Source: Methanobacteriota archaeon (GTDB lineage Archaea; JAADCQ01; Methanopyri; Methanopyrales; Methanopyraceae). From it: a stretch of DNA of 64,000 bases. The translations under genes were made by a program, and so were the position numbers. Within the stretch, counting starts at the first letter, position 1; the number at the start of each line of letters is the position of its first letter. Below are positions 1,181-5,625 of the stretch, one piece after another. The DNA is taken from the NCBI GenBank assembly GCA_027064425.1, contig JAMOPO010000057.1, forward strand, positions 96,001 through 160,000, read 5' to 3'. Below the pieces are notes generated by a model that was not told the DNA's origin, did no database searches, and was given only the letters and a program-made list of their open reading frames with translations.

Positions 1181-1585
1181 TCACTCCTCCTCTAGCAGGT
1201 AGACCTCGCCGTCGTCCAGGTTCACTCGCACGCGGCTACCCTCCGGCGGCATGAGGTGCTTGTGCTCCTCGCCGTGGTGGGGGGCATCCTCCGGGATCTC
1301 GGGCTTCACGAGCAGGTCTTTGACCTCCTCACTGACCGGCTGAGCGTCCCTGATGACCGGGATCTCCCCGTCGTCGGACAGCGTTCTGACCTCTCCCGTG
1401 CAGACGATGGCGACGGCCCCCATCACCTCCGGGTACGTATCGTAGGCGCCGCCCAGGTCCTGCGTGAAGACGACCTGTCCCTCCTGAATATCCACGATCT
1501 GGTCCGGGTGCGTCACGTGGATGACCTCGCCCTCCACCTCACCGCTGCCCCGCACGGTTTCGCCTCGCATGATCAGTCGGGCCAA
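1181..1585 (-). CDS. PEP-utilising enzyme mobile (swivel) domain-like protein
   Basis: GSGEVEGEVIHV...IQEGQVVFT...AVAIV...IPVI...EGSRVRVNLDDGEVY resembles the PPS/PPDK His-swivel fold, but there is no GGxTSH motif. Confidence 0.6.
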   Translation of the reverse strand: MARLIMRGETVRGSGEVEGEVIHVTHPDQIVDIQEGQVVFTQDLGGAYDTYPEVMGAVAIVCTGEVRTLSDDGEIPVIRDAQPVSEEVKDLLVKPEIPEDAPHHGEEHKHLMPPEGSRVRVNLDDGEVYLLEEE

Positions 1586-1689
1586 CTGAACACCCCCGGT
1601 GCGGGAGCGACCGGCAGCCTTATTTTGTCAGCAGTCCACTCTCCTGCGGGTCAAAGACCCACCTCCTCGAGGAGGTAGGGGACTAGACC

Positions 1690-2202
1690 TTGGCGGAGCG
1701 CAGGTGCGAGATCTGCGGCCGCCCGATCCAGGGCCAGCCTAAGATCGTGAAGGTGGAGGGGTCAGAGCTTAGGGTCTGCGAGGAGTGCGCGCAGTTCGGC
1801 AGGGAGGTGGCCCGCCCGCGCGCGGGGTCCGAGCGTAGGGCGCGCGGCCGGGCCCCGGCCCCGCGGCGCGCACCCCGGCCCCGCCGTAGTCGTCCCCGGG
1901 GCGTCGATCCGTTCAGCGAGGGGTACGAGGTGGTTCCGGACTACGCGGAGCGGGTTCGCGAGGCCAGGGAGGAGAAGGGTTGGAGTCAGGAGGAGCTGGC
2001 TGAGAAGCTCGGAGAGAAGGTCTCCGTGATCCGGAGAATAGAGGCCGGGAAGATGGAGCCTGACGTGGATCTGGCCAGGAAGCTGGAGAAGGTCCTGGAG
2101 GTTAAGCTCTTGGAACCGCTGGAGTCGACGGGAAGCGAGGCGTCCAGCTCCGGGGATGAGGGACTCACGCTAGGGGATGTGGTGGAGATTCGCAGGAAGT
2201 AG
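1690..2202 (+). CDS. mbf1: Archaeal multiprotein bridging factor aMBF1 (Zn ribbon + HTH)
   Basis: CEICG...VCEECAQFG Zn ribbon, Cro-type HTH (GWSQEELAEKLGEKVSVIRRIEAG), C-terminal LTLGDVVEIRRK. Confidence 0.92.
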   Translation: MAERRCEICGRPIQGQPKIVKVEGSELRVCEECAQFGREVARPRAGSERRARGRAPAPRRAPRPRRSRPRGVDPFSEGYEVVPDYAERVREAREEKGWSQEELAEKLGEKVSVIRRIEAGKMEPDVDLARKLEKVLEVKLLEPLESTGSEASSSGDEGLTLGDVVEIRRK

Positions 2203-2835
2203 GCCGGACGACAGCAGTAGGCCCAGGCAGACCAGGACGGATGCGGCCGTCGTCACGAGGGCGATGCGCCTGAGGTTCGGCTCCCGGCCCCTCCGCTCCG
2301 CCACCTTTCTCGCGATCTCCATGCTGAGCTCGCGCAGCTTGTCGCTGTCCCGGCGCGCGTAGAGCTTGACCCTACCCTCCTTCCGGTCGACGACCAGGTA
2401 CGCGTCCGCCGTCACGTGGCGCTCGTAGCGGCAGACCCTGTCGAAGCGCCTACGCACCTCCTTGAGGATCTCCTCGATCGTCTCCTCGTCGGCCCGCACG
2501 TCCAGCAGTAGCTTTCCCTCCAGCGGCACGGACTCCTCGAGCACGGCCACGTCGCAGTGGCGGACCGGGGGCGACTGCTCGACGGTCTCCAGCCGCTCGT
2601 CGATCGAGAACTTGTCGACGTACTCCTCACCGAAGAGGACCATCTTATCGAGGGACCGGCAGACGGACGACAGCACGTCCCGGTTGAACGGGTCTATCTC
2701 GCCCACCACCACGACGACGTCGTTCTTCGCCCTCTTAATTAGGCTGACTACTTCCGGTATCGTCCAGCCACTCCTCAGCACCACCAGCGTGGCCTTCCGC
2801 TTCACCTTCTTCCCCCGCTTCACCGGAGATCTCAT
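2170..2835 (-). CDS. Hypothetical protein with a single C-terminal transmembrane anchor
   Basis: 221-aa ORF with genome-typical codon usage ending IALVTTAASVLVCLGLLLSSGLL; overlaps the upstream FtsA-like gene by about 100 nt; start may be a nearby GTG. Confidence 0.65.
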   Translation of the reverse strand: MRSPVKRGKKVKRKATLVVLRSGWTIPEVVSLIKRAKNDVVVVVGEIDPFNRDVLSSVCRSLDKMVLFGEEYVDKFSIDERLETVEQSPPVRHCDVAVLEESVPLEGKLLLDVRADEETIEEILKEVRRRFDRVCRYERHVTADAYLVVDRKEGRVKLYARRDSDKLRELSMEIARKVAERRGREPNLRRIALVTTAASVLVCLGLLLSSGLLPANLHHIP

Positions 2836-4372
2836 CCACCGGGACGAGTATTGGACCCATTTCCTTCACCTGGACGACGATGTACTCGTAGGGGAGCCGG
2901 CGCACCTCGTCCGCTGACTCGGCGGGCAGCGTCCTGACCCGGACGCCCTCCACATCCTCGACTTTGTCGGAGTCCAGCCCGTCGAACTTGATCGAGACGG
3001 TGCCGGCGTAGGCTCGGCCCGAGAGCTTGGCGACGAGCGGGGAGGGTTCCATGAGGATGACCTCTTTGATGAAGCTGATGATGGCCTGCTTCAGGCCCGT
3101 CTTGCGCGGGATCTTCACGGTGTCCTCCAGCCTGCCGCTGACCTCCAGCGAGTAGCGGCCCTCGGGCGCCCTCATCTCGTCCACCTCGACCTCCACCCGG
3201 GCCCCGGCGTGGGCCTGGCACAGCACGGTGTCCCGGAGCACGGACAGCGCGACGACCCGCATGGGACCCTGCAGGCGGCGGCCGGTGTGCGGGACCACGC
3301 GCGAGGCGTCGAGGACCTGGATGCGCGGTACCGTGCCGAGGTAGTCCCGGTAGGCGATCATGACGGCCTCCTTGATCGCGTCCTCCGCCTGGTCCAGCAG
3401 TATTCCGCCGCCGAAGAGCCCCACGCGGTCGGGCGGGTGGAGGTCGGCGGCCCGGATCATACGCTTAACGGCGGACACGATGGTGTCTCGGACGTACTCG
3501 GCTACCTCCTCGATGGGCTCGAGGGCCTGGCTGCGGGAGATACCGTACTTGGACAGCTCCGACTCGGCGACGGGGGAGTTCAGCTTCTTCTTCAGGCTCT
3601 CCGCCTCCTCGTAGGTCAGGCCGAACTCGTTGGCCAGGGCGAGGGTGAAGTCGCGCCCACCGACCTTGATCGACTTGCACATCTCCAGGCTCGAGTCCCG
3701 GATCATGGAAACGTCGGTGGTGCCGCCGCCGGAGTCTATGAGCAGGTAGTCCGTGGCGCGATGCTCCGCCATCAGGGACTTGGCCACGGCGATGGGCTCG
3801 ACGGAGATCGTAATCAGCTTAAGGTTGAGGATGTTCGAGATCCGCTCCAGGTTGTCGACGAGGGTGGGGTTCGCGCTGGAGACGATGGCCCTGAACTTCA
3901 CCTCCGACGCCTTGGTACCGATGATCCCCTCCGGGTGCTCCGAGCTGAGCTCTCGGGGATCAACCTCCGCGCCGTTGACCTTCAGCTCCACGATGTCCAC
4001 GGAAACCGGTCGGCTGCGGCTCGAGAACTCCAGCTGTTCCACGATCGAGTACCCGATATCCTCCCACCGAATGCTTCCGCCAGGGCTCACCTCGATCGTC
4101 TTCTCCTGAATCTCGAACTTGTCCCCGGTCATTGAGAGGCCCACGCCTTCCACCTCGGACCTGGAGATGCCCGCGCTGTGGAGGGCCTCCTCCACGGTCC
4201 GCTCCACGATCTCGCTGACACCTTTGACGTACCGGACGTTGCCGCGCTCCATGACGGTGGGGTCCATGATGTACCGCTCGCTGTACCCCTTAACGATCAG
4301 GTTGTCACCGCGGAGCTTGCCCACGGCGGCCGCTATCACCTCCGTTCCCAGGTCGACGGCCACCACGTGCAA
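2735..4372 (-). CDS. FtsA/PilM-type actin-like ATPase with C-terminal extension
   Basis: Phosphate-1 AVDLGT, EPIAVA connect, phosphate-2 LIDSGGGTTD, GGRDFT...AESLKK, adenosine LFGGG; FtsA-like 1C insert (LKVNG..V.P...IIG.K.SEVKF). Confidence 0.8.
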   Translation of the reverse strand: MHVVAVDLGTEVIAAAVGKLRGDNLIVKGYSERYIMDPTVMERGNVRYVKGVSEIVERTVEEALHSAGISRSEVEGVGLSMTGDKFEIQEKTIEVSPGGSIRWEDIGYSIVEQLEFSSRSRPVSVDIVELKVNGAEVDPRELSSEHPEGIIGTKASEVKFRAIVSSANPTLVDNLERISNILNLKLITISVEPIAVAKSLMAEHRATDYLLIDSGGGTTDVSMIRDSSLEMCKSIKVGGRDFTLALANEFGLTYEEAESLKKKLNSPVAESELSKYGISRSQALEPIEEVAEYVRDTIVSAVKRMIRAADLHPPDRVGLFGGGILLDQAEDAIKEAVMIAYRDYLGTVPRIQVLDASRVVPHTGRRLQGPMRVVALSVLRDTVLCQAHAGARVEVEVDEMRAPEGRYSLEVSGRLEDTVKIPRKTGLKQAIISFIKEVILMEPSPLVAKLSGRAYAGTVSIKFDGLDSDKVEDVEGVRVRTLPAESADEVRRLPYEYIVVQVKEMGPILVPVDEISGEAGEEGEAEGHAGGAEEWLDDTGSSQPN

Positions 4373-4375
4373 GAG

Positions 4376-4690
4376 CTAGCCCTCCAGCTGGCCGAGGTCG
4401 CGCTGCTTGCGGGTTTGGAGCCTCCTGACGTCCTCCAGGTCGATGCCGTGGGCGGTCATGAACGCCTCTACCTCGATCAACAAGTCTCCCAGCTCCTCGA
4501 TCACCTTGTCACGATCACCGCGGCGGACGGCGTCCCGGACCTCGAGCGCCTCCTCCACCAATCGGGCCCCTGTCGCCACCTCTACGGCCCGATCCTTGCG
4601 AGGCGTAAGGCCGGTGATATTAAGGATTTGAGAGTCTAGCCGGCGGCGGGACCGGAACCGGTCGATCGCCGACTTCAGCAGGTCGTTCAA
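4376..4690 (-). CDS. MazG-like nucleotide pyrophosphohydrolase domain protein
   Basis: LVEEALEVRDAV...IEELGDLL motif. Confidence 0.8.
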   Translation of the reverse strand: MNDLLKSAIDRFRSRRRLDSQILNITGLTPRKDRAVEVATGARLVEEALEVRDAVRRGDRDKVIEELGDLLIEVEAFMTAHGIDLEDVRRLQTRKQRDLGQLEG

Positions 4691-4703
4691 GTTCAGCTTC
4701 CCC

Positions 4704-5261
4704 TCACCGCTCGTACACGTACGCGCGTCGACGCTCGTCCAGCTTCAGCACCTTGGGCGGCCCAAGGGAGTCTATCGGAAACGTGTAGCTGACGATCGTG
4801 GCGTCGCACGCGGCAAGGTCGTCGGAGAGCTCGCGCAGGAGCGAGGGGAGCAGGTACACGAACACGATGTCGGGGCGTAAGCCGCGGAGGTCCACCTCCC
4901 GGACGTCGGCCCGTATAAATACCGTTTTATCCTCTACGCCCAGTGTTTCGCACTTGCGTCTCGCAACCTGAAGTACATCCTCACGCACGTCGACACCGAT
5001 GCCGCGGCACCCGTACAGGTAGGCGGCGGCCGCCACGAACCGGCCGTCTCCGCACCCTAGGTCGACCACCCTGGTGCCCGGCTCCGGGTCCAGGTGCTCC
5101 AGGATCCGGATCACGGCGTCGATCGGGGTGGGGACGAAGCACAGTCGGGTCGGGCACGTGACCACGAAGTCGTCGTCCCGGTGGTACTCCACCTCGTCCG
5201 GGAACAGGCGCCGGAGGCGCTCAACCCTCCTGCTCTTCCTCCTCCTTCTCTTTGTCCTCAT
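4704..5261 (-). CDS. Class I SAM-dependent methyltransferase (FVPTP/DLGCGDG type)
   Basis: FVPTP, VVDLGCGDGR motif I, GVD, IVFVYLLP. Confidence 0.85.
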   Translation of the reverse strand: MRTKRRRRKSRRVERLRRLFPDEVEYHRDDDFVVTCPTRLCFVPTPIDAVIRILEHLDPEPGTRVVDLGCGDGRFVAAAAYLYGCRGIGVDVREDVLQVARRKCETLGVEDKTVFIRADVREVDLRGLRPDIVFVYLLPSLLRELSDDLAACDATIVSYTFPIDSLGPPKVLKLDERRRAYVYER

Positions 5262-5625
5262 CCACCCCGATCCTCCGCTTAGGTGAGTGGTACCCTCGCA
5301 GCTCCTCGAACTTGGCGAACCGGCGGAGGAGGCCTCGGTAAATGTCCCCGTGGCGCGGGGTGACGACGATCACGTGCCCGGGCGGGTGGATCTTCGAGAT
5401 CTTCTCGATGATCTCCGCCGGCTCTCCCTCGACCTGTGCGATGGCGGCCACCGGGTACGGTCGCTTGACCTCTCCGAGCAGTTCCCGGACGATGGTGTTG
5501 GCCACGGAGGCGCTGAGGATACGAGGTTTGCCCAAGATTTTAATACCCGCGTACCTCTCTATGTCCGACAGGCTGGTGAGTATCTTCTCATAGGAGTCGG
5601 AGCGCACCACTATAAATACCGGCAG
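5221..5625 (-). CDS. DUF356-like conserved methanogen protein
   Basis: VRSDSYEKILTSLSDIERYAGIKILGKPRI...KIHPPGHVIVV; probable CTG start at 5625, 6 nt after a GGGGTGA SD (ORF track uses GTG 5610). Confidence 0.7.
   Translation of the reverse strand: MPVFIVVRSDSYEKILTSLSDIERYAGIKILGKPRILSASVANTIVRELLGEVKRPYPVAAIAQVEGEPAEIIEKISKIHPPGHVIVVTPRHGDIYRGLLRRFAKFEELRGYHSPKRRIGVDEDKEKEEEEQEG
5611..5618 (+). promoter_or_regulatory. TATA box (TATAAATA) for the DUF2209/hflX unit, embedded in the opposite-strand gene
   Basis: Consensus archaeal TATA about 35-40 nt upstream of the probable start, in otherwise very GC-rich DNA. Confidence 0.55.

Follow-up and report, generated by a model that had tools for sequence, protein, structure and literature searches.

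Among the systems closest to the gene pair described here, PilN consists of a short cytoplasmic N-terminal peptide, a transmembrane helix and then an outside domain, and its binding site on the actin-like protein PilM is the 1A/1C groove. To our knowledge, FtsZ-based division in archaea is thought to have SepF as its sole membrane anchor. For bacterial FtsA, the sections available of PMC9098913 describe membrane binding by a C-terminal amphipathic helix and place the binding site for the C-terminal peptide of FtsZ in subdomain 2B. The accessible part of PMC8178401 states that SepF itself binds the membrane and reports an FtsA-like homologue of unknown function in Methanopyri, the only archaeal group so reported there; the portion available of Supplementary Data 1 of Pende et al. 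holds one FtsA accession for M. kandleri, which could be either the orthologue of the gene studied here or MreB. That Methanopyri carry an FtsA-like gene has been published before; our literature search found no mention of its partner gene, of its extra C-terminal domain or of the overlap between the two genes.

The window, by which we mean the whole stretch of 64,000 nucleotides that was analysed (GCA_027064425.1, contig JAMOPO010000057.1, positions 96,001-160,000 of the forward strand), comes from a heat-loving methanogen, a Methanobacteriota archaeon of the Methanopyraceae, and contains the FtsA-like gene (A), its partner (B) and their neighbours as follows:

2735..4372, minus strand: gene A, 545 aa, TTG start at 4372 and stop codon at 2735-2737; a divergent FtsA/PilM-type actin-fold ATPase
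2170..2805, minus strand: gene B, a 211-aa orphan tail-anchored membrane protein with a conserved GTG start at 2805 and stop codon at 2170-2172
2735..2805, minus strand: overlap of 71 nt between the 3' end of A and the 5' end of B, with B read in frame +1 with respect to A
2812..2816, minus strand: Shine-Dalgarno-like purine-rich run GGGGG, 7-11 nt upstream of the B GTG and within gene A
4376..4690, minus strand: small MazG-like NTP pyrophosphohydrolase gene upstream of A (PF03819, 4.7e-11)
4704..5261, minus strand: class I SAM-dependent methyltransferase gene upstream of A (PF13649, 6e-11)
5221..5610, minus strand: DUF356 protein gene upstream of A (PF04009, 2.2e-32)

The reading that we favour, with a probability of roughly 0.6, is that A and B are separate, co-transcribed genes whose products form a membrane-tethered, actin-like ATPase of two parts that is confined to Methanopyrus. 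The initial annotation had described an overlap of about 100 nt between A and a gene ending in one transmembrane helix. The single helix stood, as did the distance when measured between open reading frames (the longest B frame in the window, 2170-2835 on the minus strand, encodes 221 aa from ATG 2835 and overlaps A by 101 nt), but the conserved start shortens the overlap: ATG 2835 is present in the window genome only, whereas the start common to all 6 Methanopyrus genomes compared is the GTG at 2805, which gives 211 aa and an overlap of 71 nt. The GGGGG run upstream of this GTG is a putative ribosome-binding-like element, and the other genomes carry GGGGG or GGTGGAG at the equivalent place. 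The stop codon of the MazG-like gene lies 3 nt ahead of the A start, and the order of the MazG-like and methyltransferase genes upstream of A is identical in all six loci; the DUF356 gene is found upstream in five of them, the sixth (L003) being incomplete, and an aMBF1 gene is also among the neighbours.

The subdomains of A were delimited on its predicted model (pLDDT 81, pTM 0.83):

3872..4117, minus strand: 1C (SHS2-like) subdomain inserted in 1A, A residues ~86-167, boundaries inferred
3449..3658, minus strand: helical 2B subdomain, A residues ~239-308, with helices H239-308 in the model
2828..3205, minus strand: beta-rich orphan C-terminal domain, A residues ~390-515, with 9 strands and 1 helix in the model
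2738..2827, minus strand: disordered acidic tail, A residues 516-545, mostly overprinted by the start of B

The fold class of A is established by its motifs, its profile matches and its modelled structure. As had been claimed from the sequence alone, all actin-fold motifs are present: D7-L-G-T10, D213-S-G-G-G-T-T-D220 and G321-G322 are invariant in 5 orthologues, and most of the nucleotide-binding motif positions are invariant also against 8 bacterial FtsA-like proteins; A would probably depend on ATP. The best family match was TIGR01174 (ftsA; 70.4 bits, 1.4e-19, residues 3-271), although its cut-off of 175.85 was not reached, nor were those of NF007009 (32.9 bits, cut-off 409), TIGR01175 (pilM; 43.7 bits, cut-off 133) and the MreB families TIGR00904 (25.3 bits, cut-off 365.75) and PF06723 (23.1 bits, cut-off 27). 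A does exceed the cut-off of PF14450 (41.2 bits against 31.8), a match that is not specific to FtsA because MreB from this genome reaches 57.7 on the same family; PF02491 (SHS2_FTSA) was absent from the Pfam matches listed up to E 0.1. Foldseek placed FtsA first (1.7e-22), followed by PilM (7.9e-19), EutJ (1.1e-12) and MreB (3e-10), and VIA-align gave the same order, with best Z scores of 27.8 for FtsA (340 aligned residues, rmsd 3.2), 25.3 for PilM, 20.3 for EutJ and 20.1 for MreB. A second early claim, that the 1C subdomain is of the FtsA type and not MreB-like, held up equally well: the region shows the elements E86-95, H103-113, E121-132, E135-137 and E158-167 in the model and is spanned by the TIGR01174 alignment, FtsA chains can be superposed on model residues 1-390 over a length of 340-359 residues, and FtsA and PilM chains together align ~320-357 residues compared with ~265 for MreB. 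We conclude that A is an FtsA/PilM-type actin-fold ATPase with a 1C subdomain where MreB has 1B, and a very divergent one.

These comparisons also bear on whether A is instead a soluble enzyme or chaperone of the ASKHA group (one resembling Hsp70 or EutJ, or else a reactivase or activase) with a substrate-binding C-terminal domain, in which case B would be unrelated to it and the complex described below a false positive. One source names the M. kandleri orthologue 'Predicted ATPase of the HSP70 class', the placing of a beta-rich domain after the nucleotide-binding one is reminiscent of Hsp70, and EutJ is the second-best family match of A (1.3e-12). However, EutJ, DnaK, diol-dehydratase reactivase and activase all matched the model less well than FtsA and PilM did (Foldseek 1e-12 to 3e-9 versus 1.7e-22; Z 19-20 versus 25-28), and these families lack 1C, as their shorter alignments of 242-277 residues suggest. 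The nucleotide-binding domain of DnaK matched at Z 19.0, and the alignment of full-length DnaK (2v7y, 504 aa) was confined to model residues 1-392. Together with the complex prediction, which passed while 3 of 3 controls scored 0.00, and with the strict co-conservation of A with B and the overlapped start, this makes a soluble ASKHA role for A improbable.

Beyond the actin-like core, the roughly 150 extra C-terminal residues pointed out by the initial annotation resolve into a confidently modelled domain (~390-515) and a disordered tail (516-545). The domain was modelled with block pLDDT values mostly of 62-91 and a single dip to 54, and 53 of its 126 residues are invariant in the genus. It had no match in Pfam, none in a word-seeded search against shorter proteins (0 of 71 candidates scored) and none in an Atlas search, where feature scores reached up to 0.78; in the exhaustive profile search, 0 of the 149 matches listed outside its own cluster aligned past about profile position 385 of A. 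A relationship between this domain and B was considered and rejected (hhalign probability 0.2%). The tail has pLDDT values of 22-33, contains 9 D/E and 0 K/R, and has 6 of 30 residues invariant. The highest 19-residue hydropathy anywhere in A is 1.4, and the C-terminal amphipathic membrane-targeting helix is absent, the acidic, disordered tail standing in its place.

The product of gene B was modelled at pLDDT 80 overall and ~90 for residues 1-170, and comprises the following parts:

2572..2805, minus strand: small Rossmann-like alpha/beta domain, B residues 1-78, with strand-helix alternation; best structural Z 6.3, not significant
2749..2769, minus strand: codons of the GWTIPEV loop, B residues 13-19, inside the overlap; G13-V19 invariant in 6 of 6 orthologues
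2287..2562, minus strand: second alpha+beta domain and start of a long helix, B residues ~82-173; best Z 6.0 (KA1 domain), not significant
2197..2265, minus strand: predicted C-terminal transmembrane helix, B residues 181-203, followed by an 8-residue tail; assigned by hydropathy

B matched no Pfam or NCBIfam family; Foldseek against the PDB returned nothing at E <= 0.001, the best hit of a wide VIA-align search (Z 6.3) does not rise above noise by the standard that the tool itself sets, and in the Atlas search the top feature score was 0.76, with TM up to 0.32. In the window protein, Kyte-Doolittle hydropathy over 19 residues peaks at 2.34 (residues 181-199), and in all six orthologues the corresponding peak is 2.3-2.8, with basic residues ahead of the helix and 5-12 residues beyond it, as anticipated for a partner with one transmembrane helix. 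B would thus present ~180 cytoplasmic residues held in the membrane by its C-terminal helix.

When A and B were submitted together to complex prediction, each of 3 runs returned an ipSAE of 0.80, compared with 0.00 for the best of 3 controls. The pair thereby passed the tool's own mark, which 116 of 157 solved complexes attain but only 2 of 215 mismatched pairs; as our own alignments were used, these rates apply here only approximately. The alignments were shallow (5 and 6 rows, from a single genus). The runs had at least 78% of contacts in common, with partner pLDDT of at least 81. The result is unlikely to reflect a known complex that the tool remembers, since B lacks any relative of solved structure. 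On A the predicted interface comprises residues 233-238, 240-241, 244, 254, 290, 293-297, 300-301 and 304, mostly in the 2B subdomain. The interface is better conserved than the average: on A, 15 of its 20 residues are invariant in 5 orthologues compared with 235 of 515 overall; on B the figures are 8 of 20 and 54 of 178, respectively. The lowest expected error (0.9-1.2 A) belongs to contacts of B residues 12-18, and the prediction puts the invariant GWTIPE loop on 2B, at the centre of the interface. The suggestion that the partner supplies the membrane tether thereby gains support from a controlled prediction, and from a prediction only.

In the arrangement that we favour, A would be an ATPase with 1A, 1C, 2A and 2B and intact nucleotide-binding motifs, without a membrane helix of its own; the N-terminal domain of B would dock on 2B via the GWTIPE loop, and B may act in trans as the membrane anchor for A. 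The predicted dock is the 2B surface, at which bacterial FtsA binds the FtsZ tail; should B indeed occupy it, a simple FtsZ-tether role would become less likely, not more.

The position of the dock also bears on the proposal, made by the initial annotation as one option, of a PilM-like module, in which A would serve a surface-filament or secretion machine as its cytoplasmic platform and B would be the counterpart of PilN. PilM structures are nearly as close to A as FtsA structures (Z 22.5-25.3 versus 24.3-27.8 across the chains compared), the partner of PilM is likewise a single-pass membrane protein, and some of the closest relatives of A are named PilM in databases. Against this, A scores far under the TIGR01175 cut-off (as given above), B has a topology opposite to that of PilN, its large cytoplasmic portion being followed by a helix at the C-terminus, and the predicted contact lies on 2B and not in the 1A/1C groove. 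Moreover, no pilus or secretion gene was found among the ORFs scanned with Pfam and NCBIfam in 1181-5610, or by eye in the ORFs up to 9255. The proposal was therefore not borne out, and we regard a PilM-like role as quite unlikely.

The length of the overlap, together with the unusual codon usage that had been remarked upon in the last codons of A, raised the question of whether A and B are one gene, divided by a sequencing or assembly frameshift or joined by a programmed +1 frameshift, the product being FtsA-like and ending in a transmembrane helix that would anchor it covalently in the membrane. The atypical usage is real: GC by codon position is 0.78/0.57/0.43 in the A tail versus 0.65/0.40/0.91 in the gene body. 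Across the six Methanopyrus genomes the overlap measures 71 nt in five and 83 nt in the remaining one (71-101 nt when the longest frame in the window is included), and its variable columns fall 8/5/15 at B codon positions 1/2/3, a pattern by which selection in the overlap evidently follows the B frame. The odd codon usage of the A tail is accounted for by B, whose frame overprints it and drives selection there, and this renders a frameshifted fusion very unlikely. In addition, the two frames are retained in six genomes in which identity in A falls to 53%, and in 3 of the 6 a B-frame stop codon lies immediately ahead of the GTG. Contigs from the runs of two studies, which are possibly the source of the window assembly, had 0 differences to the window over 2500-3100, and a co-occurring strain that is ~87% identical differed only by substitutions, with no indel, in 2735-2835. 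No slippery motif common to the genomes was seen at the A stop, where the sequences vary, and no protein of 299-954 aa joining both parts was found; judged from sequence alone, a programmed shift is very unlikely rather than strictly excluded. On this evidence we consider a single gene highly improbable in either form and retain the reading of two separate genes. The A-B pair illustrates cleanly how a long overlap between archaeal genes can be both conserved and overprinted.

The distribution of the pair is narrow. Full-length orthologues of A occur in all six Methanopyrus genomes (53-100% identity), and the pair with its overlap is present in each of them, with identity down to 53% for A and 44% for B; the conservation that was to be expected of a genuine gene pair is thus found throughout the genomes available, which are also the only ones in their GTDB phylum. 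Homologues of B were found in Methanopyrus only (6 proteins in one search, 6 of 201 archaeal genomes in another), and the A-B pair is restricted to this genus. The strict co-conservation and the overlapped start argue for a functional pair. The best matches of A outside Methanopyrus in the exhaustive search were Patescibacteria/CPR FtsA-like proteins, at 2.4e-18 and weaker. Of 38 matches scanned, 34 reached E 1e-20 on TIGR01174, 29 of these lying under the FtsA cut-off (75.9-172.6 bits) and 5 over it, with most of the best 25 at 85-125 bits. A quick IQ-TREE analysis of 50 rows recovered clades of Methanopyrus (support 100), canonical FtsA (99), CPR FtsA-like proteins (99) and PilM (100) that join in a polytomy; the Methanopyrus clade has a stem of 2.4 changes per site and did not come out nested in FtsA in this tree.

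The genome has one FtsZ, ending in ...PSIDELEKIL, one SepF and a separate true MreB (339 bits). Gene A, on contig C57, is unlinked to ftsZ (contig C52), and sepF and mreB lie on contigs C15 and C27. The DUF356, methyltransferase and MazG-like neighbours carry no hint of division, and the MazG-like protein, a short query, found matches in Methanopyrus only (6 of 41 genomes). A search for RNA data covering the stretch listed no entry. The role that we infer to be most likely for the A-B pair is that of an accessory, membrane-associated element of the cytoskeleton or of division or the envelope, which would work alongside FtsZ-SepF and MreB.

More tentatively, the pair could be a split FtsA, in which an actin-like cytoskeletal element driven by ATP is held at the membrane by a genus-specific tail-anchored adaptor on 2B and the orphan domain of A recruits partners, for example FtsZ, SepF or the pseudomurein-synthesis machinery; this more specific proposal is possible but doubtful. 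Were it true, an archaeon would possess, besides SepF, a second tether for division or the envelope that had evolved independently. Taken together, the missing anchor and the gained orphan domain, the co-conserved tail-anchored partner and the predicted dock on 2B allow a gene of unreported function to be given a concrete hypothesis, one that thermostable proteins make testable in vitro.

Compared with known systems, A most resembles bacterial FtsA (for example PDB 3wqt, 4a2a and 7q6f), with which it shares the actin fold with 1C and the conserved nucleotide-binding motifs and which is its best structural match (340-359 residues), yet it falls under the equivalog cut-off. In contrast to bacterial FtsA, A has no amphipathic helix and carries in its place an orphan domain of ~125 aa and an acidic tail, does not adjoin ftsZ, has a dedicated overlapping partner gene and forms its own long-stemmed clade. 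A is not a plain transferred FtsA: the anchor helix is missing and an orphan domain has been gained. The CPR FtsA-like proteins (Candidatus Saccharibacteria and Berkelbacteria, in clusters named FtsA, PilM or rod-shape protein) are the closest matches outside Methanopyrus, form a separate clade and are ~400-430 aa long; they align only to profile position ~380 and therefore have no counterpart of the C-terminal domain of A. PilM-PilN (TIGR01175; PDB 2ych, 5eou) likewise combines an FtsA-like fold with 1C and a single-pass membrane partner, but differs in its reversed partner topology and its contact site, and pilus genes were not seen near A. Finally, like archaeal SepF, A-B is a candidate membrane-linked division accessory in an archaeon that uses FtsZ, but the folds are unrelated and the anchor of A-B would be a separate, tail-anchored protein.

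The frame encoding the 545-residue FtsA/PilM-type actin-fold ATPase (gene A) and that of its partner (gene B) lie on the same strand of the window (GC ~65%), with the following neighbours:

5221-5610, minus strand, DUF356 gene, upstream of A and closely spaced
4704-5261, minus strand, SAM methyltransferase gene, upstream of A and closely spaced
4376-4690, minus strand, small MazG-like gene, upstream of A, its stop 3 nt from the start of A
2735-4372, minus strand, gene A, 545 aa, TTG start
2170-2835, minus strand, gene B in its longest form, 221 aa, overlapping A
1690-2202, plus strand, aMBF1 gene (TIGR00270 at 2.7e-54), downstream of and convergent with B

The order DUF356, SAM methyltransferase, small MazG-like (4376-5610) is found 5' of the A-B pair, on the same strand, in the fetched Methanopyrus loci, and to our knowledge no functional link of these three genes to A-B has been described. 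The MazG-like protein, a short query, had matches confined to Methanopyrus among 41 archaeal genomes. The MazG-like gene and A share one frame in the window genome, split by a stop codon and the TTG of A (4370-4378); in two other fetched loci (L002 and L003) the frames differ, which makes a conserved read-through unlikely. At the other end, the 3' ends of B and the aMBF1 gene overlap by 33 nt (2170-2202), a very dense packing of genes.

The initial annotation regarded A and B as a coupled pair, and also raised the alternative that they are one gene split by a frameshift. A and B are adjacent in all six Methanopyrus genomes compared, that of the window included, where identity falls as low as 53% for A and 44% for B, and the pair is thus conserved. 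The overlap is also real, although the ~100 nt first ascribed to it holds only if B starts at an ATG (position 2835) found in the window genome alone. The start common to all six genomes is a GTG matching position 2805; it is immediately preceded by a TAA in the B frame in three genomes and is the sole start-type codon available in that frame in two more, which sets the length of B at 208-211 aa. Counted from this GTG, five genomes have an overlap of 71 nt and the sixth one of 83 nt. A putative ribosome-binding site, the purine-rich sequence GGGGG or GGTGGAG, lies 4-11 nt 5' of the GTG.

Across the first 69 overlapping nucleotides, the alignment varies at 8, 5 and 15 columns for B codon positions 1, 2 and 3, respectively, a wobble pattern that follows the B frame; the third codon position of A coincides with the second of B, where the fewest columns vary. 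The last codons of A, previously described as atypical, are indeed so (GC by codon position 0.78/0.57/0.43 in the tail versus 0.65/0.40/0.91 in the body), and we attribute this to overprinting of the N-terminus of B on a tail of A that evolves passively. The model shows this tail, residues 516-545, as disordered (pLDDT 22-33); it is acidic (nine D/E, no K/R) and has 6 invariant residues out of 30, which mirror the invariant GWTIPE codons of B. Over 2500-3100 the window showed no differences from contigs obtained from the runs of two studies, although the assembly may itself derive from these identical contigs; within 2735-2835, the contigs of a more abundant strain, ~87% identical, differ by substitutions alone. 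No slippery motif common to the genomes was seen at the stop of A, and no fused form was found among the 299-954-aa proteins searched. We regard a single frameshifted gene as very unlikely in view of the two frames kept in all six genomes, the conserved GTG, the B-frame wobble and the absence of a fused protein from that search. The second strain (~87% identity over 2500-3100) was present in metagenome runs X1, X2 and X5, at a word depth 7-22 times that of the window's own strain.

Having distinguished two genes, we consider the fold of A. The NCBIfam profile ftsA (TIGR01174) matched residues 3-271 at 1.4e-19 (70.4 bits), followed by EutJ (1.3e-12), pilM (1.8e-11) and mreB (7.2e-6), all far under their curated cut-offs. 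The Pfam FtsA profile (PF14450) passes its cut-off (41.2 versus 31.8) but is unspecific, as the true MreB of this genome scores 57.7. An AlphaFold model of A built from 13 aligned rows (pLDDT 81, pTM 0.83) retrieved FtsA in Foldseek at 1.7e-22 (TM by target 0.77), PilM at 7.9e-19, EutJ at 1.1e-12, diol-dehydratase reactivase at 1.1e-11 and MreB at 3e-10. VIA-align gave the same leading families: FtsA with Z 24.3-27.8 over 340-359 residues and PilM with Z 22.5-25.3 over 315-332 residues, then EutJ (Z 20.3, 242 residues), MreB (Z 20.1, 263 residues), ParM (Z 19.7), actin (Z 19.3) and DnaK (Z 19.0). The ~80 further residues that align with FtsA and PilM alone form a strand-helix-strand-strand insert (residues 86-167), which on the model is the 1C subdomain. 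The claims that A carries the actin-fold motifs, its nucleotide-binding motifs being invariant, and that its 1C subdomain is FtsA-like and not MreB-like were therefore both upheld.

Beyond the ATPase fold, residues 390-515 of A are modelled as nine strands and one helix (pLDDT mostly 62-91, with a single dip to 54), and 53 of these 126 residues are invariant within the genus. In an exhaustive profile search, no alignment extended past profile position ~385 in any of the 149 rows listed for other clusters than the family's own, and searches of Pfam, the Atlas and shorter proteins found nothing for this domain. A relationship of the domain to B was rejected by direct comparison.

The ATPase as a whole is similarly isolated. 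The exhaustive search (1.84 billion representatives) returned 1812 matches at E <= 0.001, yet the only cluster at 1e-30 or better was the Methanopyrus family itself, and the next match stood at 2.4e-18. When 38 of the 150 listed matches were scanned against NCBIfam at E 1e-20, 34 hit TIGR01174 and four hit nothing; 29 of the 34 fell under the FtsA cut-off, and most of the best 25 scored 85-125 bits. Five of ten clusters looked up were named, as FtsA, PilM or rod-shape protein, two of them with organisms (Candidatus Saccharibacteria and Candidatus Berkelbacteria). One distant match, the 969-aa protein P0125, is an unusual fusion of an EACC1-associated caspase-like domain (16-240) and an FtsA-like ATPase (568-854). 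A quick IQ-TREE analysis of 50 rows hand-picked from the hit lists (5 Methanopyrus, 27 low-scoring FtsA-like, 12 canonical FtsA and 5 PilM, with the MreB of this genome as outgroup) recovered each group as monophyletic with 99-100% support, with no supported order among the groups; in this tree the Methanopyrus stem measures 2.4 changes per site. Of the 41 archaeal genomes searched, 6 had a full-length match to A, every one of the six being Methanopyrus.

Homologues of B were likewise found in Methanopyrus alone, as six proteins in one search and in 6 of 201 archaeal genomes covering 142 genera in another, and neither Pfam nor NCBIfam holds a family for it. The model of B (pLDDT 80 overall, ~90 over residues 1-170) has as its best structural match one of Z 6.3 and comprises:

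residues 1-78, small Rossmann-like domain
residues ~82-150, alpha+beta domain

A long helix follows. Its end is hydrophobic (residues 181-203 of B in the window), a feature kept in all six orthologues despite sequence change, in line with the single C-terminal transmembrane helix originally ascribed to B. With basic residues before it and 5-12 residues after it, this hydrophobic end is probably a tail anchor, with most of B on the cytoplasmic side. We regard the structural assignments made for A and B as solid.

A controlled complex prediction, run on full-length A with a 5-row alignment and on B residues 1-178 with a 6-row alignment, gave the A-B pair an ipSAE of 0.80 in all three runs, against 0.00 for the best of three controls, in agreement with the proposed partnership. 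Of 157 solved complexes 116 reach the tool's mark, as do 2 of 215 mismatched pairs, rates that are rough here because our own alignments were used. At least 78% of contacts agree between runs, and the partner pLDDT is at least 81. The predicted contacts of B are residues 12-18 (the invariant GWTIPE loop), 20-21, 40-48 and 75-80; those of A (39, 217, 233-238, 240-241, 244, 254, 290, 293-297, 300-301 and 304) sit on the last 2A strand and the 2B helices, 2B being mapped by secondary-structure order and profile alignment and not by residue-level superposition. In the predicted interface 15 of 20 residues of A are invariant (235 of 515 overall), as are 8 of 20 of B (54 of 178).

According to Pende et al. 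2021 (PMC8178401), Methanopyri alone among Archaea have an FtsA-like homologue besides SepF, probably of bacterial origin and of unknown function, and their Supplementary Data 1 gives one accession for M. kandleri; Subedi et al. 2021 describe FtsA orthologues as rare in pseudomurein methanogens (PMC10117817). Full-text search found no other literature treating this gene, and we found no mention of the partner gene, the extra domain or the overlap in the papers retrieved. The window's genome encodes FtsZ (contig C52, C-terminus ...PSIDELEKIL), SepF (C15) and a true MreB (C27) once each, all on contigs other than that of A (C57). The MreB frame (C27, 139705-140688) has ~55 residues preceding the actin fold, very acidic and Glu-rich, as taken from a stop-to-stop frame.

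Overall, the best-supported reading of these models is that A and B constitute a two-part, membrane-tethered FtsA-like ATPase, in which the predicted complex would allow B to act as the membrane anchor of A in trans. Family resemblance suggests an accessory role for the pair in division, in cell shape or at the envelope, a suggestion weakened because the neighbouring genes are unrelated and because B possibly occupies the FtsZ-peptide site on A. [quoted passage not shown]
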